A stretch of DNA of 17,162 nucleotides from a virus (lineage: Duplodnaviria > Heunggongvirae > Uroviricota > Caudoviricetes). The DNA is taken from the IMG/VR virus record IMGVR_UViG_2563366831_000005; one strand, 5' to 3'. This document shows positions 1 through 17,162 of this stretch, piece by piece; the first letter of the stretch is position 1; each line of letters opens with the position of its first letter. A model generated the notes under the pieces. It searched no databases and was not told the origin of the DNA. It saw nothing but the letters and a program-made list of their open reading frames with translations. Position numbers and translations under genes: made by a program.

Positions 1-569
1 GTGCCGGACGGTCGACGGGCCCATAACGCCTGCTCCAGTGCATCCAGCACGAATGTCGTTTCCATGGACGATGAGACCCGCCACCCCACGATGTATCCGG
101 CAAACACATCAATGATGAACGCCACATAGACGAAGCCCCGCCATGTGCTGACGTAAGTAAAATCAGCCACCCACAGCTGGTCAGGTCGTTCTGCCACGAA
201 CTGACGGTTTACGCGGTCGCCTGCGGCAACGGCTTTCCGGCTGATGGTCGTACGGACCTTTTTACCCCGGAGAACACCGGCAAGTCCCATAACCGCCATG
301 AGACGTGCCACAGTGCATCTGGCCACTCTGATACCTTCCCGTAACAACTGACGCCAGACTTTACGCACACCGTATACCTTGTGATTTTCATCGTATACGC
401 GCTGTATCTCTTTCTTCAGCCAGTCATCGCGCTGCGCACGGGCACTGCGTTTATCCGGATGATGTCGCTGTTGCTGACAGTGGTAATACGTTGACGGGGC
501 AATATGCAGTTCGCTGCATAGCGGTCCGACCCCGTACTGCTCACGCAGCTTATCCAGCAGTGGCATCAT
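1..569 (-). CDS. IS3-family transposase OrfB (DDE integrase domain), 3' end beyond window
   Basis: Minus-strand translation from ATGATG at 569-564 reads [72 protein letters not shown]...[57 protein letters not shown] and stays open to position 1. It is absent from the ORF track only because it has no stop inside the window. Confidence 0.85.
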
Positions 570-892
570 TTTTTCCAGAGGCGGTCGAACTCCGCCTTCG
601 CAAAATAAGCGGAAGCCTGGCGAAGGATATCGTTACTGCGGCGCAGTTCACGATTTTCACGTTCCAGCTCTTTCAGACGCTGACGTTCAGCGGTGGTGAG
701 CCCTCCATCACCACCCCCGGTATCCCGCTCATGCTGGCGAACCCAGACACGCAGAGTCTCCGGCGTACAGCCAATCTTTGGAGCAATGGAACAAATTGTC
801 GCCCATTGTGAGTCATATTCGCTCTGACTTTCCAGAACCATACGGACTGCCCGTTGACGGACTTCGGGGGAAAAACGAGTATTTTTAGTCAT
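566..892 (-). CDS. IS3-family transposase OrfA (helix-turn-helix / leucine-zipper protein)
   Basis: 108 aa [60 protein letters not shown]...[34 protein letters not shown], typical OrfA. Its TGA stop overlaps the orfB ATG. Confidence 0.9.
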
Positions 893-946
893 CCTGTTTA
901 CCTCTTTCTCAGGAAGTTTAGTCTCCAGGATTCCCGGGGCGGTTCA

Positions 947-988
947 GAAATTAAAGCTAAGTTCGGACTGAAAGGAGCAAGTGTATGA
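947..988 (+). pseudogene. 3'-terminal remnant (13 codons) of the phage replication gene (P position in lambda), cut off by the IS
   Basis: The frame ending in TGA at 986-988 overlaps the ren ATG at 985-987 as ATGA, the P/ren junction architecture of lambda. The open frame (EIKAKFGLKGASV*) begins exactly at the IS terminus. Identity as P is inferred from position only. Confidence 0.4.
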
Positions 989-1275
989 AGGGCAAAGAGG
1001 CAATTATTCATTACCTGGGGACGCATAATAGCTTCTGTGCGCCGGACGTTGCCGCGCTAACAGGCGCAACAGTAACCAGCATAAATCAGGCCGCGGCTAA
1101 AATGGCACGGGCAGGTCTTCTGGTTATCGAAGGTAAGGTCTGGCGAACGGTGTATTACCGGTTTGCTACCAGGGAAGAACGGGAAGGAAAGATGAGCACG
1201 AACCTGATTTTTAAGGAGTGTCGCCAGAGTGCCGCGATGAAACGGGTATTGGCGGTATATGGAGTTAAAAGATGA
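985..1275 (+). CDS. ren: Ren (Rex-exclusion resistance protein), lambda-like
   Basis: 96 aa, MKGKEAIIHYLGTHNSFCAPDVAALTGATVTSINQAAAKMARAG...; matches lambda Ren in length and sequence as recalled. Sits directly upstream of the tR2-like terminator and ninB. Confidence 0.85.
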   Translation: MKGKEAIIHYLGTHNSFCAPDVAALTGATVTSINQAAAKMARAGLLVIEGKVWRTVYYRFATREEREGKMSTNLIFKECRQSAAMKRVLAVYGVKR

Positions 1276-1300
1276 CCATCTACATTACTGAGCTAATAAC

Positions 1301-1333
1301 AGGCCTGCTGGTAATCGCAGGCCTTTTTATTTG
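1301..1333 (+). terminator. Intrinsic terminator, tR2-like (between ren and ninB)
   Basis: AGGCCTGC (1301-1308), loop tggtaatc, GCAGGCCT (1317-1324), then TTTTTATTT. Same position as lambda tR2. Confidence 0.6.
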
Positions 1334-1348
1334 GGGGAGAGGGAAGTC

Positions 1349-1789
1349 ATGAAAAAACTAACCTTTGAAATTCGATCTCCAGCACATCAGCAAAACGCTA
1401 TTCACGCAGTACAGCAAATCCTTCCAGACCCAACCAAACCAATCGTAGTAACCATTCAGGAACGCAACCGCAGCTTAGACCAAAACAGGAAGCTATGGGC
1501 CTGCTTAGGTGACGTCTCTCGTCAGGTTGAATGGCATGGTCGCTGGCTGGATGCAGAAAGCTGGAAGTGTGTGTTTACCGCAGCATTAAAGCAGCAGGAT
1601 GTTGTTCCTAACCTTGCCGGGAATGGCTTTGTGGTAATAGGCCAGTCAACCAGCAGGATGCGTGTAGGCGAATTTGCGGAGCTATTAGAGCTTATACAGG
1701 CATTCGGTACAGAGCGTGGCGTTAAGTGGTCAGACGAAGCGAGACTGGCTCTGGAGTGGAAAGCGAGATGGGGAGATCGGGCTGCATGA
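1349..1789 (+). CDS. ninB: NinB (Orf-family recombination protein)
   Basis: 146 aa from ATG 1349 (MKKLTFEIRSPAHQQNAIHAVQQILPDPTKPIVVTIQERNRSLDQNRKLWACLGDVSRQVEWHGRWLD...), preceded by a GGGAGAGGGAAG ribosome-binding site. The track's start at 1331 is a TTG extension. Confidence 0.9.
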   Translation: MKKLTFEIRSPAHQQNAIHAVQQILPDPTKPIVVTIQERNRSLDQNRKLWACLGDVSRQVEWHGRWLDAESWKCVFTAALKQQDVVPNLAGNGFVVIGQSTSRMRVGEFAELLELIQAFGTERGVKWSDEARLALEWKARWGDRAA

Positions 1790-2313
1790 CTATCAAATCA
1801 AATACGCCAGCACACGACAAGGACTGCTGGCAAACGCCGCTTTGGCTTTTTGATGCACTGGATATTGAGTTTGGATTCTGGCTGGATTCGGCAGCGAGCG
1901 ACAAAAATGCTCTGTGTGCTCACTGGCTAACTGAGGCCGACGACGCGCTCAATTCTGAGTGGGTAAGCCACGGTGCAATCTGGAATAACCCACCGTACAG
2001 CAATATCAGGCCGTGGGTGGAAAAAGCTGCTGAGCAGTGCATACAACAGCGACAGACGGTAGTTATGCTTGTGCCAGAGGATATGTCAGTCGGATGGTTC
2101 AGCAAGGCTCTGGAGAGTGTCGACGAAGTTCGCATTATCACTGATGGACGGATTAATTTTATCGAACCATCGACAGGGCTGGAGAAGAAGGGAAACAGCA
2201 AAGGCTCCATGCTGCTGATTTGGCGACCGTTCATCAGTCCTCGACGGATGTTTACTACCGTATCCAAAGCGGCATTGATGGCGATCGGGCAGGGCGTCAG
2301 GAGGGCGGCATGA
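1786..2313 (+). CDS. Phage DNA N6-adenine methyltransferase (Dam-type, orphan)
   Basis: ATG 1786 overlaps the ninB stop (ATGA). The product [31 protein letters not shown]...[16 protein letters not shown]... carries the NPPY catalytic motif of N6-adenine methyltransferases. No restriction endonuclease partner is nearby. Confidence 0.8.
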
Positions 2314-2486
2314 GGCGACAGCGACGAAGTTTCACCGACATCATCTGCGAAAACTGCAAATACCTTCCAACGAAACGCTCCAGAAATAAACGCAAGCCAA
2401 TCCCAAAAGAATCTGACGTAAAAACCTTCAATTACACAGCTCACCTGTGGGATATCCGGTGGCTAAGATATCGTGCGAGGAAATGA
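2310..2486 (+). CDS. ninE: NinE
   Basis: 58 aa [58 protein letters not shown]; its ATG overlaps the methyltransferase stop. Matches lambda NinE as recalled. Confidence 0.8.
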
Positions 2487-2830
2487 CAATGGATTATTCA
2501 CAGTTAAGTGATTTTGAAATTAACAGAATGGTAGGAGACATAATTTTTAAAGGCCTTTGGGCAAGTAAACCGGAAACATCAGGGAATAACACCAACAAAT
2601 GGTATTACGGAAATGCTGATACAACTTTTGAGCCATTAAATCATTTGCCTGACTACTGCAATGATCCGAGCGCTTCATGGCCGATTATTGAGAAATACAG
2701 GATTTCTATCTTAGACCAGTTAACTGAATGGTGTGTGGATGCAAAAGGCGTAAGCCCAATATTTGATACCAGACCTCTCCGCGCCGCCATGATTGTCTTT
2801 CTCCTGATGCAGGAGGCCAATAATGCTTAG
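2483..2830 (+). CDS. NinX-like nin-region protein of unknown function (P22 NinX family position and size)
   Basis: 115 aa from ATG 2483, overlapping the ninE stop (ATGA): [89 protein letters not shown].... Visibly more AT-rich than the flanking genes. Family name is from memory and tentative. Confidence 0.55.
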
Positions 2831-3017
2831 CCCATCTCAATCCCTTCAATACCTGAAAGGAAGCATAGAGCGGGCTTCAATGTGCACAGAGTGGATTCTA
2901 TCTAGGTTTAGCGCATACAGAAGATTGCCGGTAAAGGGCATGCCAAGCAAGTCGATGCTGCATATGCAAAAGAATGCGCGCTGGAAGGTATGGCGAGAAC
3001 ACAGTTTATCTGGCTGA
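2823..3017 (+). pseudogene. Chimeric ORF: NinF-like N-terminus running out of frame into a ybcO-like remnant
   Basis: ATG 2823 lies 6 nt after AGGAGG (2811-2816). The first ~18 codons, [18 protein letters not shown], resemble the lambda NinF N-terminus. The rest (…ILSRFSAYRRLPVKGMPSKSMLHMQKNARWKVWREHSLSG) has no recognisable family and overlaps the ybcO-like frame out of phase. Confidence 0.35.
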
Positions 3018-3040
3018 AAGAGGGGGTTATTAAGGCGTGA
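2951..3040 (+). pseudogene. 3' remnant of a ybcO-like (DUF1364-type) nin gene, no start codon
   Basis: The frame ending TGA 3038-3040 overlaps the rusA GTG and reads ...[29 protein letters not shown], matching the C-terminus of DLP12 YbcO as recalled. Upstream the same frame hits TAG at 2909-2911 and the similarity is lost. Confidence 0.4.
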
Positions 3041-3399
3041 ATACCTACAATATCACATTACCCTGGCCGCCGAGCAATAATCGCTATTACCGCCATAATC
3101 GCGGGCGCACGCACATCAGCGCAGAGGGGCAGGCATACCGCGAAAACGTCGCCCGAATCATTAAAAACGCAATGCTGGATATCGGCCTGGCTATGCCTGT
3201 GAAAATCCGCATTGAGTGTCACATGCCGGATCGCCGTCGCCGTGACCTGGATAATCTACAAAAGGCCGCTTTTGACGCACTCACCAAAGCAGGTTTCTGG
3301 CTGGATGATGCTCAGGTCGTTGATTACCGCGTTGTGAAGATGCCGGTTGTCAAAGGTGGAAAGCTGGAACTGACCATCACTGAACAGGGAGATGAATGA
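3037..3399 (+). CDS. rusA: RusA Holliday-junction resolvase
   Basis: 120 aa, [103 protein letters not shown]...; GTG start. Essentially the E. coli prophage RusA sequence. Confidence 0.9.
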
Positions 3400-3536
3400 T
3401 GTTTGAGTTTTATATGGCAGAACTTCTTCGCCACCGCTGGATGCGCCTGCGCTTATATCGTTTCCCCGGTTCTGTTTTGACCGATTACCGAATACTGAAG
3501 AATTACGCCAAAACACTGACAGGAGCAGGAGTATGA
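3396..3536 (+). CDS. ylcG: YlcG-like small protein (46 aa)
   Basis: ATGATG at 3396 overlaps the rusA stop. The product [46 protein letters not shown] matches DLP12 YlcG as recalled. Below the ORF track's length cutoff. Confidence 0.55.
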
Positions 3537-3621
3537 AGTCAGAGATAACAATCAACTAATACTGTTTTGTTGATTTTTGCTTGTAATTGGCGTTCTGGTC
3601 TGAGTTTTGTGGAGTAAGTTG

Positions 3622-4005
3622 ATGCGTGATATTCAGATGGTTCTTGAGCGTTGGGGAGCGTGGGCGGCTAATAATCATGAAGATGTGACCTGGTCGTCCA
3701 TTGCCGCCGGTTTTAAGGGATTAATTCCTTCAAAAGTAAAATCTCGCCCACAATGTTGTGACGATGACGCGATGATCATTTGCGGGTGCATGGCCCGTCT
3801 GAAAAAGAACAACAGCGATTTGCATGATTTATTAGTAGATTATTATGTAGTCGGTATGACATTCATGTCACTGGCAGGTAAGCATTGCTGCTCTGATGGT
3901 TATATCGGGAAAAGGTTACAGAAGGCTGAGGGCATAATTGAAGGGATGTTAATGGCATTAGATATCCGGTTAGAGATGGATATCGTTGTTAATAACTCTA
4001 ATTAA
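3622..4005 (+). CDS. Q: Late-gene antiterminator Q (DLP12 QuuD / phage-21-like type)
   Basis: 127 aa from ATG 3622 ([60 protein letters not shown]...), GGAG ribosome-binding site at 3611-3614. Cysteine cluster consistent with a zinc-binding Q. Sits immediately upstream of the late region. Confidence 0.8.
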
Positions 4006-4145
4006 TATGCCAATTATTTACTAAAAGTTATTAAAAATGGGGCGTTGAGACGCCCCCAAAAATAAAGGGTAATATATAACAGAAGGTTTATATAGTTAGA
4101 AGCAAGGTTGTGCTTCTAAAGGAAGTGGCTTGAGGGAGCCACTTA
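4006..4145 (+). promoter_or_regulatory. Candidate late promoter / Q-utilisation region (PR'-qut position)
   Basis: Position immediately downstream of Q, as in lambdoid phages. AT-rich with TTGAGA and TAATAT/TATATA hexamers, but I could not assign a convincing -35/-10 pair with canonical spacing. Confidence 0.25.
4039..4056 (-). terminator. Intrinsic terminator on the minus strand (distal terminator for the porin transcript)
   Basis: GGGGCGT (4039-4045), loop tgag, ACGCCCC (4050-4056). On the minus strand it is followed by ATTTTTAATAACTTTT; on the plus strand the tail is A-rich, so it is minus-specific. Confidence 0.4.
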
Positions 4146-4185
4146 TATGTTGGGGAGGCAACGCCTCCCGCAACATATCTTTTTC
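4146..4185 (+). terminator. Strong intrinsic terminator on the plus strand (tR'-like, downstream of Q)
   Basis: 15-bp interrupted stem: ATATGTTG-GGGAGGC, loop AAC, GCCTCCC-(g)-CAACATAT (4146-4179), followed by CTTTTT (4180-4185). Abuts the porin stop codon at 4195-4197. Confidence 0.55.
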
Positions 4186-4194
4186 GTAATCAGA

Positions 4195-5292
4195 TTAGAA
4201 CTGGTAAACCAGACCTACAGCAACGATGTCATCAGTGCTTACACCGAGTGCTTTAGTGAAGTCATTTTTGTCAAGCAGGTTGATTTTGTAATCAACGAAA
4301 GTAGACATATTTTTGTTGAAGTAATAGGTTGCACCTACATCAACATATTTGACTAAGTCCTGATCGCCCCATACTCCAAGATCCTTACCTTTAGATTGCA
4401 GGTAAGCAACGGACGGACGCAGACCGAAATCGAACTGATATTGTGCAACAGCTTCGAAGTTTTGGGCTTTATTAGCAACGAAGTGATCAGCAAATACAGT
4501 CATATTCTGGGTTTCAGAATAGGTAGTGGCCAGGTAAATGTTGTTAGCGTCATATTTCAGACCTGCGGCCCAAACTTCTGCATTTTTACCGGAAGCAAAT
4601 ACTTCAGGAAGAACTTTCCCTGCATTAACTTGAGTGTCGGTACGATCAGATTTCGCATAAGTTGCACCGATACCGAATCCTTCGTATTCATAGGTAGCAG
4701 AGAAACCGAAGCCATCACCGTTACCTTCAGTGTAGTTATCGAAATCGCTACGATCGTTTTTGCCTTGGTACTGAGCAGCAAAGTTCAGACCATCAACCAG
4801 ACCAAAGAAGTCGTTGTTACGATAGGTTGCAACACCAGTGGTGCGACCAGTCATGAACACATCTGTTTGGGTCCAGGTATCGCCACCGAATTCTGGCAGA
4901 ACGTCAGTCCACGCACCGATGTCGTATGCTACACCGTAGTTACGGCCGTAATCGATTGAGCCGTAGTCACCGAATTTCAGGCCTGCAAATGCAAGACGGG
5001 TTTTGTCTTTGGAGGAACCTTGAGATTCAGCGCGGTTGCCTTTGAATTCATATTCCCACTGACCGAAACCAGTCAGTTGATCGTTGATTTGGGTTTCACC
5101 TTTGAAGCCAAGACGGGCATAAGTAGTATCACCATCATCTGCATCATTAGAGGAGAAGTAGTGCTTGGCATTAACTTTCCCGTACAGATCCAGCTTGTTA
5201 CTGTCTTTATTATAAATTTCAGCTGCCTGAGCAGACATCGCCATCAGTACTGATGCAGCTACAGCAGAAATTGCCACTGTTAATTTTTTCAT
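4195..5292 (-). CDS. nmpC: Phage-encoded OmpC-family outer-membrane porin (NmpC/Lc type), intact
   Basis: 365 aa with a signal peptide ([23 protein letters not shown]|AEIYNK) and typical porin sequence through the C-terminal ...VGLVYQF. Uninterrupted by any IS. Confidence 0.9.
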
Positions 5293-5880
5293 CGTGAGCC
5301 CTTTTTTTTGAACTATTATTAAAAAATGATGTCACTGCGCGATAAATATTCATCTAATCAATGTGATTATTTCAAGATGTAAGTTTTAGTTTCTCATTTA
5401 ATTTGTGAAGTAGATCTCTATTTTTATCTGAACTTTTTCTATCGAAACCTATTTATGGCTCTTATTTGAACAAAAATAAACCTATTAGCTAATTTATATT
5501 AATGGTTGTTATTTATGGAGGTTCTATAATTCAGCAGTTTAATTTAAATCAACTAAAAATAACGTCTGAAATTATTTATTGGTTATTTGTTGAGGTTTTC
5601 TTATGTATTTGTGGTGGTGTTTTGAACACTCGGTAGCATTCTCATAAATATCATTCAGTGGTTTACGTACGTAAAAAATTGGTTATGCTGTTAAGAGTGG
5701 TTACTTCGTCACACAGCTTAAACCCGCCGTCGAGCTGGTTTTTCCATTTTTTGAGTCTCGATATTAGCTGATAACTCAATACCTGAGTTATTCACTGACT
5801 CCGAGTCTGTTACGTTTCTGCTTTTTTGCGATACGTTGTATTCCCTCAATTTACACCCGCTTTGTCTGCGAGGTGGGGTT

Positions 5881-6096
5881 ATGAAATCCATGGATAAGTT
5901 AACAACGGGTGTCGCCTATGGCACCTCAGCAGGTAGTGCCGGTTACTGGTTTTTACAGCTGCTCGATAAAGTCACGCCCTCACAGTGGGCAGCAATAGGT
6001 GTGCTGGGTAGCCTGGTATTTGGCCTGCTGACGTACCTGACAAACCTTTATTTCAAGATTAAAGAAGATAAGCGCAAGGCTGCGAGAGGTGAATAA
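5881..6096 (+). CDS. S: Class II holin, phage-21 S-type pinholin with dual-start motif
   Basis: 71 aa [71 protein letters not shown], with two transmembrane segments and Met1/Met4 dual starts. GGTGGGG ribosome-binding site upstream. The track's 5836 start is an unsupported extension. Confidence 0.85.
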
Positions 6097-6590
6097 TGCC
6101 TCCATCATTACGAAAAGCCGTTGCTGCTATTGGTGGCGGAGCAATTGCTATAGCATCAGTGTTAATCACTGGCCCAAGTGGTAACGATGGTCTGGAAGGT
6201 GTCAGCTACATACCATACAAAGATATTGTTGGTGTATGGACTGTATGTCACGGGCATACAGGAAAAGACATCATGCTCGGTAAAACGTATACCAAAGCAG
6301 AATGCAAAGCACTCTTGAATAAAGACCTTGCCACTGTCGCCAGACAAATTAACCCGTACATCGAAGTCGATATACCGGAAACAACGCGCGGCGCTCTTTA
6401 CTCATTCGTTTACAACGTGGGTGCTGGCAATTTCAGAACATCGACGCTTCTTCGCAAAATAAACCAGGGCGATATCAAAGGCGCATGTGATCAGCTACGT
6501 CGCTGGACATATGCTGGCGGTAAGCAATGGAAAGGTCTCATGACTCGTCGTGAGATTGAGCGTGAAATCTGTTTGTGGGGTCAGCAATGA
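6096..6590 (+). CDS. R: SAR endolysin (phage-21 R-type lysozyme with N-terminal signal-anchor-release domain)
   Basis: 164 aa. N-terminal Gly/Ala-rich weakly hydrophobic segment ([19 protein letters not shown]) followed by a T4-lysozyme-like domain. ATG overlaps the holin stop (TAATG). Confidence 0.9.
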
Positions 6591-7048
6591 ACAGAGTAAC
6601 CGCGATTATCTCCGCTCTGGTTATCTGCATCATCGTCTGCCTGTCATGGGCTGTTAATCATTACCGTGATAACGCCATTACCTACAAAGCCCAGCGCGAC
6701 AAAAATGCCAGAGAACTGAAGCTGGCGAACGCGGCAATTACTGACATGCAGATGCGTCAGCGTGATGTTGCTGCGCTCGATGCAAAATACACGAAGGAGT
6801 TAGCTGATGCGAAAGCTGAAAATGATGCTCTGCGTGATGATGTTGCCGCTGGTCGTCGTCGGTTGCACATCAAAGCAGTCTGTCAGTCAGTGCGTGAAGC
6901 CACCACCGCCTCCGGCGTGGATAATGCAGCCTCCCCCCGACTGGCAGACACCGCTGAACGGGATTATTTCACCCTCAGAGAGAGGCTGATCACTATGCAA
7001 AAACAACTGGAAGGAACCCAGAAGTATATTAATGAGCAGTGCAGATAG
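6587..7048 (+). CDS. Rz: Rz inner-membrane spanin
   Basis: 153 aa from ATG 6587, overlapping the endolysin stop (ATGA). N-terminal transmembrane segment then a coiled-coil-like periplasmic region; matches lambda Rz. Confidence 0.85.
6807..6989 (+). CDS. Rz1: Rz1 outer-membrane lipoprotein spanin, nested in the +1 frame of Rz
   Basis: 60 aa [60 protein letters not shown]: lipobox VVGC and a proline-rich mature peptide, wholly embedded in Rz. Confidence 0.8.
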
Positions 7049-7079
7049 AGCTGCCCATATCGATGGGCAACTCATGCAA

Positions 7080-7373
7080 TTATTGTGAGCAATACACACG
7101 CGCTTCCAGCGGAGTATAAATGCCTAAAGTAATAAAACCGAGCAATCCATTTACGAATGTTTGCTGGGTTTCTGTTTTAACAACATTTTCTGCGCCGCCA
7201 CAAATTTTGGCTGCATCAACAGTTTTCTCCTGTCCAATTCCCGAAACGAAGAAATGATGGGTGATGGTTTCCTTTGGTGTTACTGCTGTCGGTTTGTTTC
7301 CAACAGTAAACGTCTGTTGAGCACATCCTGTAATAAGCATTGCCAGAGCGGCAGAAAACAACATTTTTTTCAT
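7080..7373 (-). CDS. bor: Bor outer-membrane lipoprotein (Iss-family serum-resistance lysogenic-conversion protein)
   Basis: 97 aa from the internal Met of track ORF 7080-7421: MKKMLFSAALAMLITGCAQQTFTVGNKPTAVTPKETITHHFFVSGIGQEKTV..., lipobox LITGC, AGGA ribosome-binding site on the minus strand. Matches lambda Bor. Confidence 0.85.
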   Translation of the reverse strand: MKKMLFSAALAMLITGCAQQTFTVGNKPTAVTPKETITHHFFVSGIGQEKTVDAAKICGGAENVVKTETQQTFVNGLLGFITLGIYTPLEARVYCSQ

Positions 7374-7735
7374 CTTATTATCCTGCATTGTTAAAAACGG
7401 CAGAATCCTATGTGACAACAATTAAACGATAGTTAAATGGATTGATGAAAATTAAAACTATATAGGTGTACGCTCAGACTATTGGAGGAAGTTGGGGGCA
7501 CTCAGAATCCTGTGGAATGAAATAAACCGCTCTTTCTGTCCATTACCCTTTTAGCTGCGCTGTATCGTCGCCGTATTCCCGCATTAACCATGACCGTAGC
7601 CCGACGGGGAATTCCTTCTGCGTGAGTGTGCGGGAATAATCAAAAACGATGCACACCGGGTTTTACTGTGCTGACAGACGCAGGGTTACCCTCATAGTCG
7701 CTTTTCCGGTGCGATGGTGGAAGAAACCGGGATGT

Positions 7736-7930
7736 TTATTCATCATCACTTTGGATTGATGTATATGCTCTCTTTTCTGACGTTAGTCTCCGACGGCAGG
7801 CTTCAATGACCCAGGCTGAGAAATTCCCAGACCCTTTTTGCTCAAGAGCGATGTTAATTTGTTCAATCATTTGGTTAGGAAAGCGGATGTTGCGGGTTGT
7901 TGTTCTGCGGGTTCTGTTCTTAGTTGACAT
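7736..7930 (-). CDS. YlcI-like small protein (DUF3950-type), function unknown
   Basis: 64 aa MSTKNRTRRTTTRNIRFPNQMIEQINIALEQKGSGNFSAWVIEACRRRLTSEKRAYTSIQSDDE. Same position (just upstream of cos and the Nu1 homolog) as ylcI in DLP12, as recalled. Confidence 0.55.
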   Translation of the reverse strand: MSTKNRTRRTTTRNIRFPNQMIEQINIALEQKGSGNFSAWVIEACRRRLTSEKRAYTSIQSDDE

Positions 7931-8129
7931 GAGGTTGCCCCGTATTCAGTGTCGCTGATTTGTATTGTCTGAAGTTGTTTTTACGTTAAGTTGATGCAGA
8001 TCAATTAATACGATACCTGCGTCATAATTGATTATTTGACGTGGTTTGATGGCGTAGATGCACGTTGTGATATGTAGATGATAATTATTATCATTTTTCG
8101 GGTCCTTTCCGGCGATCCGACAGGTTACG

Positions 8130-8141
8130 GGGCGGCGACCT
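8130..8141. other. cos: cosN cohesive-end site (12-nt lambda-type overhang GGGCGGCGACCT), flanked by cosQ (left) and cosB (right)
   Basis: ...ATCCGACAGGTTACG|GGGCGGCGACCT|CGCGGGTTTTCGCTATTTATGAAAATTTTCCGG... reproduces the junction of lambda's right and left ends as recalled. The Nu1 gene follows about 180 bp downstream. Confidence 0.8.
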
Positions 8142-8318
8142 CGCGGGTTTTCGCTATTTATGAAAATTTTCCGGTTTAAGGCATTTCCGTTCTTCTTCGT
8201 CGTAACTTAATGTTTTTATTTAAAATACCCCCTGAAAAGAAAGGAAACGACAGGTGCTGAAAACGAGCTTTTGGGCCTCTGTCGTTTCCTTTCTCTGTTT
8301 TTGGCCGTGGAATGAACA

Positions 8319-8838
8319 ATGGAAGTCAACAAAAAGCAGCTGGCTGACATTTTCGGTGCGAGTATCCGTACCATTCAGAACTGGCAGGAACAGGGAATGC
8401 CCGTTCTGCGAGGCGGTGGCAAGGGTAATGAGGTGCTTTATGACTCTGCCGCCGTTATAAGATGGTATGCCGAAAGGGATGCTGAAATTGAGAACGAAAA
8501 GCTGTGCCGGGAAGTTGAAGAACTGCGGCAGGCCAGCGAGACAGATCTCCAGCCAGGGACTATTGAGTACGAACGCCATCGACTTACGCGTGCGCAGGCC
8601 GACGCACAGGAGCTGAAAAATGCCAGAGACTCCGCTGAAGTGGTGGAAACCGCATTCTGTACTTTCGTGCTGTCGCGGATCGCAGGTGAAATTGCCAGTA
8701 TTCTCGACGGGATCCCCCTGTCGGTGCAGCGGCGTTTTCCGGAACTGGAAAACCGACATGTTGATTTCCTGAAACGGGATATCATCAAAGCCATGAACAA
8801 AGCAGCCGCGCTGGATGAACTGATACCGGGGTTGCTGA

Positions 8839-8864
<26 letters not shown>
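8319..8864 (+). CDS. nu1: Terminase small subunit Nu1
   Basis: 181 aa MEVNKKQLADIFGASIRTIQNWQEQGMPVLRGGGKGNEVLYDSAAVIRWYAER...; N-terminal winged helix-turn-helix. Matches lambda Nu1. Confidence 0.9.
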
Positions 8865-12545
<3,681 letters not shown>

Positions 12546-12565
<20 letters not shown>

Positions 12566-13865
12566 TCTCCCGCATATTGCCAGCATGGCCTTTAATGAGC
12601 CGCTGATGCTTGAACCCGCCTATGCGCGGGTTTTCTTTTGTGCGCTTGCAGGCCAGCTTGGGATCAGTCGCCTGACGGATGCAGTATCCGGCGACAGCCT
12701 GACTGCCGGAGAGGCACCCGCGGCGCTGGCGTTATCCGGTGATGATGACGGACCACGACAGGCCCGCAGTTATCAGGTCATGAACGGCATCGCCGTGCTG
12801 CCGGTGTCCGGCACGCTGGTCAGCCGGACGCGAGCGCTGCAGCCGTATTCGGGGATGACCGGTTACAACGGCATTATCGCCCGTCTGCAACAGGCTGCCA
12901 GCGACCCGATGGTGGACGGCATTCTGCTCGATATGGATACGCCAGGCGGGATGGTGGCAGGGGCATTTGACTGCGCTGACATCATCGCCCGTGTGCGTGA
13001 CATAAAGCCGGTATGGGCGCTGGCCAACGACATGAACTGCAGTGCAGGTCAGTTGCTTGCCAGCGCCGCCTCCCGACGTCTGGTCACGCAGACCGCCCGG
13101 ACAGGCTCCATCGGCGTCATGATGGCTCACAGTAATTACGGTGCTGCGCTGGAGAAACAGGGCGTGGAAATCACGCTGATTTACAGCGGCAGCCATAAGG
13201 TGGATGGCAACCCCTACAGCCATCTACCGGGTGATGTCCGGGAGACACTGCAGTCCCGGATGGATGCAACCCGCCGGATGTTTGCGCAGAAGGTGTCGGC
13301 ATATACCGGCCTGTCCGTGCAGGCTGTGCTGGATACCGAGGCTGCAGTGTACAGCGGTCAGGAGGCCATTGATGCCGGACTGGCTGATGAACTTGTCAAC
13401 AGCACCGATGCGATCACTGTTATGCGTGATGCACTGGATGCACGTAAATCCCGTCTCTCAGGAGGGCGAATGACCAAAGAGACTCAATCAACAACTGTTT
13501 CAGCCACTGCTTCGCAGGCTGACGTTACTGACGTGGTGCAAGCGACGGAGGGCGAAAACGCCAGCGCGGCGCAGCCGGACGTGAACGCGCAGATCACCGC
13601 TGCGGTTGCGGCAGAAAACAGCCGCATTATGGGGATCCTCAACTGTGAGGAAGCTCACGGACGCGAAGAACAGGCACGTGTGCTGGCCGAACCCCCCGGT
13701 ATGACCGTGGAAACGGCCCGCCGCATTCTGGCAGCTGCACCACAGAGTGCACAGGCGCGCAGTGACACTGCGCTGGATCGTCTGATGCAGGGGGCACCGG
13801 CACCACTGGCTGCAGGTAACCCGGCATCTGATGCCGTTAACGATTTGCTGAACACACCAGTGTAA
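12546..13865 (+). CDS. C: Head maturation protease / minor capsid protein C (S49/ClpP-like)
   Basis: GTG 12546 (VTAELRNLPHIASMAFNEPLMLEPAYARVFFCALAGQLGI...) in the frame of track ORF 12411-13865; 1320 bp as in lambda C. The track's 12411 start would overlap B by 155 nt and is rejected. Confidence 0.8.
13260..13865 (+). CDS. nu3: Scaffolding protein Nu3, in-frame internal start within C
   Basis: In-frame ATG 13260 (MDATRRMFAQKVSAYTGLSVQAVLDTEAAVYSGQEAIDAGLADELV...) sharing the C stop codon; nested C/Nu3 arrangement of lambda. Confidence 0.65.
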   Translation: MDATRRMFAQKVSAYTGLSVQAVLDTEAAVYSGQEAIDAGLADELVNSTDAITVMRDALDARKSRLSGGRMTKETQSTTVSATASQADVTDVVQATEGENASAAQPDVNAQITAAVAAENSRIMGILNCEEAHGREEQARVLAEPPGMTVETARRILAAAPQSAQARSDTALDRLMQGAPAPLAAGNPASDAVNDLLNTPV

Positions 13866-13874
13866 GGGATGTTT

Positions 13875-14207
13875 ATGACGAGCAAAGAAACCTTTACCCA
13901 TTACCAGCCGCTGGGCAACAGTGACCCGGCACATACGGCAACCGCGCCCGGCGGATTGAGTGCGAAAGCGCCTGCAATGACCCCGCTGATGCTGGACACC
14001 TCCACCCGTAAGCTGGTTGCGTGGGATGGCACCACCGACGGTACTGCCGTTGGCATTCTGGCGGTTGATGCTGACCAGACCAGCACCACGCTGACGTTCT
14101 ACAAGTCCGGCACGTTCCGTTATGAGGATGTGCTCTGGCCGGAGGCTGCCAGCGACGAGACGAAAAAACGGACCGCGTTTGCCGGAACGGCAATCAGCAT
14201 CGTTTAA
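13875..14207 (+). CDS. D: Head decoration protein D
   Basis: 110 aa from ATG 13875, [110 protein letters not shown]. The track's 13869 start adds two residues. Confidence 0.9.
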
Positions 14208-14225
14208 CCTTACCCTTCATCACTA

Positions 14226-14249
14226 AAGGCCGCCTGTGCGGCTTTTTTT
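14226..14249 (+). terminator. Hairpin plus T-tract between D and E (terminator-like structure)
   Basis: AAGGCCGC, loop ctgt, GCGGCTTT (14226-14245) followed by a T run; a second T run sits at 14256-14262, just before the E ATG. Confidence 0.4.
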
Positions 14250-14262
14250 ACGGGATTTTTTT

Positions 14263-15288
14263 ATGTCGATGTACACAACCGCCCAGCTGCTGGCGGCAAA
14301 TGAGCAGAAATTTAAGTTTGATCCGCTGTTTCTGCGTCTCTTTTTCCGTGAGAGCTATCCCTTCACCACGGAGAAAGTCTATCTCTCACAAATTCCGGGA
14401 CTGGTAAACATGGCGCTGTACGTTTCGCCGATTGTTTCCGGTGAGGTTATCCGTTCCCGTGGCGGCTCCACCTCTGAATTTACGCCGGGATATGTCAAAC
14501 CCAAGCATGAGGTGAATCCGCAGATGACCCTGCGTCGCCTGCCGGATGAAGATCCGCAGAATCTGGCGGACCCGGCTTACCGCCGCCGTCGCATCATCCT
14601 GCAGAACATGCGAGACGAAGAGCTGGCCATTGCTCAGGTCGAAGAGATGCAGGCCGTTTCTGCTGTGCTTAAGGGCAAATACACCATGACCGGTGAAGCC
14701 TTCGATCCGGTTGAGGTGGATATGGGCCGCAGTGCGGCGAACAACATCACACAGTCCGGTGGTACGGAGTGGAGCAAGCGTGACAAGTCCACGTATGACC
14801 CGACCGACGATATCGAAGCCTATGCGCTGAACGCCAGCGGCGTGGTGAATATCATCGTGTTTGATCCGAAAGGCTGGGCGCTGTTCCGTTCCTTCAAAGC
14901 CGTCAAGGAGAAGCTGGATACCCGTCGCGGCTCTCATTCCGAGCTGGAGACAGCGGTAAAAGACCTGGGCGAAGCGGTGTCCTATAAGGGGATGTATGGC
15001 GATACGGCGATCGTCGTGTATTCCGGACAGTACGTGGAAAACGACGTCAAAAAGAACTTCCTGCCGGACAACACGATGGTGCTGGGGAACACTCAGGCAC
15101 GCGGTCTGCGCACCTATGGCTGCATTCAGGATGCGGACGCACAGCGCGAAGGTATTAACGCCTCTGCCCGCTACCCGAAAAACTGGGTGACCACCGGCGA
15201 TCCGGCGCGTGAGTTCACCATGATTCAGTCAGCACCGCTGATGCTGCTGGCTGATCCTGATGCGTTCGTGTCCGTACAACTGGCGTAA
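14263..15288 (+). CDS. E: Major capsid protein E
   Basis: 341 aa from ATG 14263, MSMYTTAQLLAANEQKFKFDPLFLRLFFRESYPFTTEKVYLSQIPGLVNMALYVSPIVSGEVIRSRGGSTSEFTPGYVKPKHEV...; lambda gpE. The track's 14236 start is an extension. Confidence 0.92.
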   Translation: MSMYTTAQLLAANEQKFKFDPLFLRLFFRESYPFTTEKVYLSQIPGLVNMALYVSPIVSGEVIRSRGGSTSEFTPGYVKPKHEVNPQMTLRRLPDEDPQNLADPAYRRRRIILQNMRDEELAIAQVEEMQAVSAVLKGKYTMTGEAFDPVEVDMGRSAANNITQSGGTEWSKRDKSTYDPTDDIEAYALNASGVVNIIVFDPKGWALFRSFKAVKEKLDTRRGSHSELETAVKDLGEAVSYKGMYGDTAIVVYSGQYVENDVKKNFLPDNTMVLGNTQARGLRTYGCIQDADAQREGINASARYPKNWVTTGDPAREFTMIQSAPLMLLADPDAFVSVQLA

Positions 15289-15329
15289 TCATGGCCCTTC
15301 GGGGCCATTTTCTCTCTGTGGAGGAGTCC

Positions 15330-15725
15330 ATGACGAAAGATGAACTGATTGCCCGTCTTCAGGTGCTGGGTGAGCAACTGAACCGTGATGTCAGCCTGAC
15401 GGGGACGAAAGAAGAACTGGTGCTCCGTGTGGCAGAGCTGGAAGAGGAGCTTGATGACACGGATGACGCTGCCGGTCAGGACACATCTGTCAGCCCGGAA
15501 AATGCGCTGACCGGACATGAAAATGAGGTGGTATCAGCGCAGCCGGATACCGTGATTGATACGGCTGCTCTGGTCACGGTCGTGGCACTGGTGACGCTGC
15601 ATACTGATGCACTTCACGCCACGCGGGATGAGCCTGTGGCATTTGTGCTGCCGGGAACGGCGTTTCGTGTCTCTGCCGGTGTGGCAGCCGAAATGACAGA
15701 ACATGGCCTGGCCAGAATGCAATAA
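15330..15725 (+). CDS. FI: DNA-packaging / head assembly protein FI
   Basis: 131 aa from ATG 15330, MTKDELIARLQVLGEQLNRDVSLTGTKEELVLRVAELEEELDDTDDAAGQDTS...; GGAGGAG ribosome-binding site at 15318-15324. Confidence 0.85.
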   Translation: MTKDELIARLQVLGEQLNRDVSLTGTKEELVLRVAELEEELDDTDDAAGQDTSVSPENALTGHENEVVSAQPDTVIDTAALVTVVALVTLHTDALHATRDEPVAFVLPGTAFRVSAGVAAEMTEHGLARMQ

Positions 15726-15736
15726 CGGGAGGCGCT

Positions 15737-16090
15737 GTGGCTGATTCCGATAACCTGTTCGATGCTGCCATTGCCCGCGCCGATGAAACGATACGCGGGT
15801 ACATGGGAACGTCAGCCACCATGACATCCGGTGAGCTGTCCGGTGCTGTGATACGTGGTGTTTTTGATGACCCTGAAAATATCAGCTATGCCGGACAGGG
15901 CGTGCGCGTTGAAGGCTCCAGCCCGTCCCTGTTTGTCCGGACTGATGATGTGCGGCAGCTGCGGCGTGGAGACACACTGACCATCGGCGAGGAAAACTTC
16001 TGGGTGGACCGGATTTCGCCGGATGATGGCGGAAGCTGTCATCTCTGGCTTGGGCGTGGCGTGCCGCCTGCCGTTAACCGTCGCCGCTGA
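15737..16090 (+). CDS. FII: Head-tail connector (head completion) protein FII
   Basis: 117 aa, GTG start, MADSDNLFDAAIARADETIRGYMGTSATMTSGELSGAVIRGVFDDPENISYAGQGVRVEGSSPSLFVRTDDVRQLRRGDTLTIGEENFWVDRISPDDGG... Confidence 0.88.
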   Translation: MADSDNLFDAAIARADETIRGYMGTSATMTSGELSGAVIRGVFDDPENISYAGQGVRVEGSSPSLFVRTDDVRQLRRGDTLTIGEENFWVDRISPDDGGSCHLWLGRGVPPAVNRRR

Positions 16091-16101
16091 AAGGGGGATG
16101 T

Positions 16102-16680
16102 ATGGCCATAAAAGGTCTTGAGCAGGCCGTTGAAAACCTCAGCCGTATCAGCAAAACGGCGGTGCCTGGTGCCGCCGCAATGGCCATTAACCGCGTTGCG
16201 TCATCCGCGATATCGCAGTCGGCGTCACAGGTTGCCCGTGAGACAAAGGTACGCCGGAAACTGGTAAAGGAAAGGGCCAGGCTGAAAAGGGCCACGGTCA
16301 AAAATCCGCAGGCCAGAATCAGGGTTAACCGGGGGGATTTGCCCGTAATCAAGCTGGGTAACGCGCGGGTTGTCCTTTCCCGCCGCAGACGTCGTAAAAA
16401 GGGGCAGCGTTCATCCCTGAAAGGTGGCGGCAGCGTGCTTGTGGTGGGAAACCGTCGTATTCCCGGCGCGTTTATTCAGCAACTGAAAAATGGCCGCTGG
16501 CATGTCATGCAGCGTGTGGCCGGGAAAAACCGTTACCCCATTGATGTGGTGAAAATCCCGATGGCGGTGCCGCTGACCACGGCGTTTAAACAGAATATTG
16601 AACGGATACGGCGTGAACGTCTTCCGAAAGAGCTGGGCTATGCGCTGCAGCATCAACTGAGAATGGTAATAAAGCGATGA
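16102..16680 (+). CDS. Z: Tail assembly/completion protein Z
   Basis: 192 aa MAIKGLEQAVENLSRISKTAVPGAAAMAINRVASSAISQSASQVARETKVRRKLVKERARLKRATVKNPQARIRVNRGDLPVIKLGNARV...; lambda gpZ. Confidence 0.88.
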   Translation: MAIKGLEQAVENLSRISKTAVPGAAAMAINRVASSAISQSASQVARETKVRRKLVKERARLKRATVKNPQARIRVNRGDLPVIKLGNARVVLSRRRRRKKGQRSSLKGGGSVLVVGNRRIPGAFIQQLKNGRWHVMQRVAGKNRYPIDVVKIPMAVPLTTAFKQNIERIRRERLPKELGYALQHQLRMVIKR

Positions 16681-17072
16681 AACATACTGAACTCCGTGCA
16701 GCCGTACTGGATGCACTGGAGAAGCATGACACCGGGGCGACGTTTTTTGATGGTCGCCCCGCTGTTTTTGATGAGGCGGATTTTCCGGCAGTTGCCGTTT
16801 ATCTCACCGGCGCTGAATACACGGGCGAAGAGCTGGACAGCGATACATGGCAGGCGGAGCTGCATATTGAAGTTTTCCTGCCTGCTCAGGTGCCGGATTC
16901 AGAGCTGGATGCGTGGATGGAGTCCCGGATTTATCCGGTGATGAGTGATATCCCGGCACTGTCAGATTTGATCACCAGTATGGTGGCCAGCGGCTATGAC
17001 TACCGGCGCGACGATGATGCGGGCCTGTGGAGTTCAGCCGATCTGACTTATGTCATTACCTATGAAATGTGA
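16677..17072 (+). CDS. U: Tail terminator protein U
   Basis: 131 aa [93 protein letters not shown]...; ATG overlaps the Z stop (ATGA). Confidence 0.9.
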
Positions 17073-17079
17073 GGACGCT

Positions 17080-17162
17080 ATGCCTGTACCAAATCCAGTA
17101 ATGCCGGTGAAAGGGGCCGGGACCACCCTGTGGGTTTATAAGGGGAACGGTGACCCTTATGC
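17080..17162 (+). CDS. V: Major tail tube protein V, 5' end only (continues beyond window)
   Basis: ATG 17080 preceded by GAGGA; reads [27 protein letters not shown]..., the lambda gpV N-terminus. Confidence 0.8.

Follow-up and report, generated by a model that had tools for sequence, protein, structure and literature searches.

The window, by which we mean the whole stretch of 17,162 nucleotides that was analyzed, carries one complete lambda-type cos site, which is followed by Nu1 and A, the genes of terminase, and by the head and head-tail joining genes; the right-hand part of one IS3-family element is located at its left edge (Table 1). The cohesive-end sequence of lambda, GGGCGGCGACCT, occurs once in the window, on the plus strand, against a chance expectation of ∼0.002 exact matches (2 × 17162 / 4^12). 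This agrees with the earlier note, which had placed a cosN overhang at the very same position. The positions of the other subsites were transferred from the annotated phage 434 record OL657226, in which cosN is at bp 1–12, R3 at bp 50–65, I1 at bp 74–86, R2 at bp 108–123 and R1 at bp 151–166, Nu1 begins from bp 190, and cosQ is at −30 to −24 from the right end. These assignments can be read against published definitions: cosN is defined as 16 bp (PMC9026076), R3 lies at bp 50–65 in the order R3-I1-R2-R1 with R2 inverted (PMC9026076, PMC4669245), and the role of R1 is accessory (PMC4669245). The flanks of the overhang had been described as cosQ/cosB-like; cosQ, R3, I1, R2 and R1 are in fact all present, at lambda spacing.

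Table 1. Coordinates of the cos subsites, the genes and the insertion element in the window
Feature	Position	Strand	Description
IS3-family element, right-hand part, cut by the window edge	1–945	−	ALIL pseudoknot; assignment from the annotation of relatives
cosQ	8100–8106	+	GGGTCCT, 30–24 bp left of the top-strand nick; identical to lambda; packaging-termination subsite
cosN	8128–8143	+	GGGCGGCGACCT (8130–8141) plus 2 bp on each flank
cosN nicks	before 8130 (top strand); after 8141 (bottom strand)		
cosB R3	8179–8194	+	AGGCATTTCCGTTCTT; critical gpNu1 site; 15/16 as in lambda
cosB I1	8203–8215	−	AAACATTAAGTTA on the minus strand; IHF site core, 13 bp as in lambda and 434
cosB R2	8237–8252	−	gpNu1 site, inverted relative to R3 and R1; 16/16 as in lambda
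cosB R1	8280–8295	+	accessory gpNu1 site, direct; 16/16 as in lambda
Nu1	8319–8864	+	terminase small subunit, 181 aa; ATG at 8319; open and full length
A	8839–10764	+	terminase large subunit, 641 aa; GTG start as in lambda; open and full length
W, B, C/Nu3, D, E, FI, FII, Z, U	10761–17072	+	head and head-tail joining genes, all open

Compared to lambda (NC_001416), the order and spacing of the subsites are identical, and cosQ, cosN, the I1 core, R2 and R1 are unchanged. The sequence from lambda 48487 to bp 53 is reproduced in the window without any indel; no indel is present from cosQ to R2 either, and the spacing between cosN and R3 is kept. Even the loss of 3 bp from the interval between cosN and cosB is reported to have severe effects (PMC9026076). 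I1 is located between R3 and R2, and both R2 and R1 are upstream of the Nu1 start, which is the arrangement of a complex cosB of the lambda type. Differences that would disable cosN or the Nu1-binding sites were looked for and none was found; one subsite base is changed, G54 of R3 being replaced by A, and the other eight changes, which span lambda 48471 to bp 176, spare the subsites. The substitutions are 48471 A>T, 48486 T>C, bp 54 G>A, bp 73 A>G and bp 102 T>C, followed by bp 134 G>A, loss of G138, bp 145 T>G and bp 176 T>G. Owing to the loss of G138, the R2-R1 spacer is 1 bp shorter than in the lambda reference; the shorter form is common to the window, 434, DE3 (a derivative of lambda), PhiR34_1 and PhiR42_1. 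The extra G of NC_001416 at bp 138 (between window 8266 and 8267) moves the Nu1 start from bp 190 to bp 191, and reflects either polymorphism between strains or a long-standing error of the reference.

Both terminase genes that follow cos are intact, as had been claimed; they are open and full length, and their families were confirmed by Pfam. Nu1 is identical to its lambda counterpart at 177 of 181 residues, with the four substitutions K48R, R63C, A75T and L132I. Residues 1–47 are the same as in lambda, and they include the recognition helix (residues 17–24, with E24) and the wing (residues 31–39, with K35) of the winged-HTH. Nu1 matches Pfam Phage_Nu1 with an E value of 2.7e-100, as well as the PDB entries 1j9i (residues 1–68) and 6hn7. 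The large subunit, gpA, is even closer to lambda, with 639 of 641 residues identical (T151S and D185E); it matches the Pfam families GpA_ATPase and GpA_nuclease, and contains the sequence KSARVGYS, which we take to be the Walker A motif. Nu1 and gpA are 100% identical to those of PhiR34_1, and 98–99.7% identical to those of lambda. Further downstream, the genes from W to U have the lengths annotated in a 100%-identical relative, the prophage of strain E47, and W is identical to lambda W.

The cos region and its neighborhood were also compared at the nucleotide level. Window 7719–8129 is 96.1% identical to the right end of lambda (NC_001416), and window 8130–11028 is 98.2% identical to lambda bp 1–2900. 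Over a longer range, window 2951–17162 and phage PhiR34_1 (PV340559, record host MG1655) share 98.4% identity. No publication on the PhiR phages was found in the literature, and their status as propagated phages is taken from the GenBank organism and host fields alone. From position 945 to its right end at 17162, the window is 100% identical to prophages of several unrelated complete E. coli genomes, among them strains E47 (bovine) and CP55_Sichuan (pig). The E47 relative is located at a tRNA-Arg gene beside intD, and its gene set is complete, int through tail fibres; related prophages are located at argU. Taken together, these observations indicate, with a probability of about 0.9 on the sequence comparisons, that the region is the cos site and the start of the terminase operon of a lambdoid prophage with lambda specificity, a full-length relative of DLP12, the cryptic prophage of K-12.

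Two segments outside the packaging region are described here for completeness. Window 7428–7718 is a segment of 291 bp at a place where lambda (lambdap78/p79 region) and K-12 DLP12 (ybcV-ybcW) have ∼1.28 kb; it is a mosaic joint in the bor/ylcI interval, and the short version is also found in PhiR34_1. In the nin region, window 1786–2313 corresponds to a gene that is annotated as phage N-6-adenine methyltransferase in the 100%-identical E47 relative.

The insertion element reported at the left edge is indeed there, next to the end of replication gene P, and belongs to the IS3 family: the Rfam ALIL frameshift pseudoknot is found at 495–611 on the minus strand, and relatives are annotated with an IS3 family transposase. 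Identity to the intact relatives begins at window 945, inside P of E47. The end of the IS abuts the last ∼14 codons of P, the stop of which is at 988 by offset from E47; therefore P is interrupted or truncated. A search of complete E. coli genomes did not turn up the IS/P junction: every match over the full length of window 1–1500 was in 2–3 pieces, with the IS elsewhere. A species-representative genome collection gave 0 hits. Different from the window, the phage genome records of PhiR34_1 and PhiR42_1 show no IS in the replication region. The element is likely unable to replicate itself; the window shows nothing to the left of the IS.

The earlier note had also described a hairpin at about 8240–8290, lying between cos and the Nu1 start. 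The hairpin is real and is longer than described; its placement outside cos did not hold. The arms of the inverted repeat, 8238–8263 and 8269–8294, are 26 nt each, 85% complementary and 5 nt apart, and they are the oppositely oriented gpNu1 sites R2 (left arm) and R1 (right arm) within cosB; therefore the repeat belongs to cos. One could propose instead that its main role is at the RNA level, as a hairpin of the late transcript that serves in termination, in stability or in translation upstream of Nu1. Its predicted RNA fold has an energy of −34.8 kcal/mol (z = −5.1 vs shuffles), it lies 24 nt ahead of the start of Nu1, and the sequence that comes next is T-rich, all of which would suit such a role. 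However, the arms coincide exactly with R2 and R1, both of which are annotated as gpNu1 sites and have been defined as such by genetics, and any role in RNA would add to the role in DNA and not replace it. A terminator was rejected as a candidate, since the consensus terminator scan did not call the inverted repeat and no Rfam family matches it. We regard a mainly RNA-level function as highly improbable, and favor the assignment of both arms to cosB.

The single subsite difference from lambda (G54A, window 8183) is in R3. If the site were a decayed relic, G54A or the flanking differences would weaken Nu1 binding and terminase would no longer initiate there. Three observations are in keeping with such decay: R3 is the most critical of the R sites (PMC9026076), G54 is conserved across R3, R2 and R1 of lambda itself, and the replication region carries an IS. 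Because of the conservation of G54, a modest effect of G54A on affinity or on IHF dependence is possible; a dependence on IHF is what the bp 58 mutation creates. However, the contacts of Nu1 seen by NMR are with bp 55–63, and the known defective mutations of R3 are at bp 56, 58 and 59 (PMC9026076); bp 54 is just outside the contacted stretch, which in the window is the same as in lambda. Over the stretch that begins with cosQ and ends with the Nu1 ATG, no base differs between the window and the deposited phage PhiR42_1 (PV340562, record host ECOR13), which also has A54. In a set of 127 IMG/VR cos sequences with a lambda-type cosB, 56 of them distinct, common R3 polymorphism is confined to bp 53 and 54 (window 8182–8183), which vary as CG, CA or TG, and bp 55–63 contain one singleton change; positions −7 to +18 were fixed by the search pattern in this set, and their invariance is no evidence, and the frequency of A54 in the set is inflated by an A54-specific scan. 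The A54 version of R3 is found in 76 IMG/VR contigs. With respect to Nu1, PhiR42_1 combines A54 with R63 and PhiR34_1 combines G54 with C63, whereas the window has A54 with C63, a combination that was seen in prophages only. Decay is further opposed by the 100% identity of window 945–17162 to prophages with full gene sets in several unrelated strains, and by the open state of all packaging and head genes. On these grounds a relic is very unlikely, and G54A is a common natural polymorphism that looks neutral. Another origin for the site, a satellite-type (PICI-like) cos that hijacks the terminase of a helper, would fit with the idea of helper-dependent packaging, and PICIs do carry lambda-like cosQ and cosN. 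However, PICI sites have no cosB of the phage type, rpp comes after them, and PICIs carry neither terminase nor capsid genes of their own (PMC9026076). In the window, cosB is complete (R3-I1-R2-R1), and the element's own Nu1 and A and a full head module come after cos. A satellite cos of the PICI type is refuted by this anatomy, and we consider its chance negligible.

For the cos site of a full-length lambdoid prophage, which is the reading that we prefer, a mode of action can be proposed. All steps are established biology in lambda, and we infer them for the window from its near-identity to that phage. IHF would bend the DNA into a hairpin at I1, and across this bend Nu1 dimers would bind both R3 and R2, the inverted site, with R1 assisting. 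Bound Nu1 would anchor gpA; gpA would then nick cosN at points 12 bp apart, giving rise to the 5′ overhang GGGCGGCGACCT. Terminase would stay on the cosB end, dock on the prohead and translocate the DNA rightward, through Nu1 and A and beyond. The terminating cut would be triggered by cosQ and cosN once the next cos is reached. Because every determinant of recognition is intact in the sequence, cos should be cleavable by the prophage's own terminase or by any other terminase of lambda specificity.

An intact cos is necessary for packaging, but it is not sufficient. Terminase needs a second cos of the same orientation about one genome length downstream, which normally comes from concatemers, and a helper can supply replication in trans only if its O protein fits the ori of the prophage. 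Packaging of the whole element depends on excision, on concatemer formation and on the cos-to-cos length; the packaging range of lambda is about 38–51 kb. The earlier note had proposed that the element could be packaged with the aid of a helper. The complete cos and the intact Nu1 and A agree with this; on the other side, cos alone does not suffice, and two cos sites on a concatemer are needed. The idea of helper-dependent packaging is plausible but only partly supported. The documented rescue for prophages of the DLP12 type is recombination of cos/nu1 into superinfecting lambda, not packaging of the whole element (PMC3945230). A bolder version, in which the IS-crippled prophage has retained cos, terminase and the head module in fully functional form and is a helper-dependent, satellite-like transducing element, or in which its chromosomal cos is cut in situ by a lambdoid terminase, seems to us very improbable. 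If it were true, an in situ cut of cos by the terminase of the prophage itself, of a resident phage or of a superinfecting phage could stimulate recombination, and it could also start the packaging of adjacent host DNA toward a suitably spaced second cos.

Of 5426 complete E. coli genomes, 4591 gave a match to a 226-bp query for lambda-type cos, and the positive genomes had a median of two sites each. Because it is near-identical to lambda and found in most E. coli genomes, the locus is an ordinary, textbook lambda-type cos; it offers nothing new and belongs to already known biology. Its import hardly goes beyond annotation: the coordinates of the cos subsites are now fixed exactly, the packaging determinants are intact in sequence, and the supposed extra hairpin has been reassigned to the known terminase-binding sites R2 and R1. 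The presence of an intact cos in a possibly replication-defective prophage does bear on recombinational rescue by incoming lambdoid phages, of which DLP12 is the documented case.

The prophage was also compared with DLP12 of K-12. The window and DLP12 have a common late-region order, quuD-porin-essD-rrrD-rzpD-bor-ylcI-cos-Nu1, in which Nu1 is represented by nohD in K-12. The late region is 95–98% identical to that of DLP12, and window 7719–9146 shows 98.2% identity; NohD and Nu1 of the window differ at 3 residues. The site of DLP12 is argU, and the 100%-identical relative of the window in E47 is at tRNA-Arg beside intD. At bp 53–54 of R3, K-12 DLP12 has TG, whereas the window has CA. The porin gene of the window (4195–5292, minus strand, 365 aa) is intact, whereas its K-12 homologue nmpC is split by IS5; in relatives, the porin gene between quuD and essD is annotated as porin or OmpC. 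The two prophages also differ in what follows Nu1: DLP12 retains only a truncated gene A (the aaaD pseudogene) and has lost its head and tail genes, whereas the genes from A to U are intact in the window. Both have an IS3-family element in the P-ren region, although at different points; the IS3 copy of DLP12 (IS3C) is ∼130 bp further to the right than the IS of the window, inside renD. The two elements look like independent IS3-family insertions in one short P-ren stretch. Lambda takes up the cos-proximal region of DLP12 by recombination at high frequency, and half of the sequenced lambda/DLP12 junctions are at cos (PMC3945230). Lambda recombinants with the DLP12 nu1 are viable, and both this gene and the cos-proximal region of DLP12 function once they are recombined into lambda (PMC3945230).
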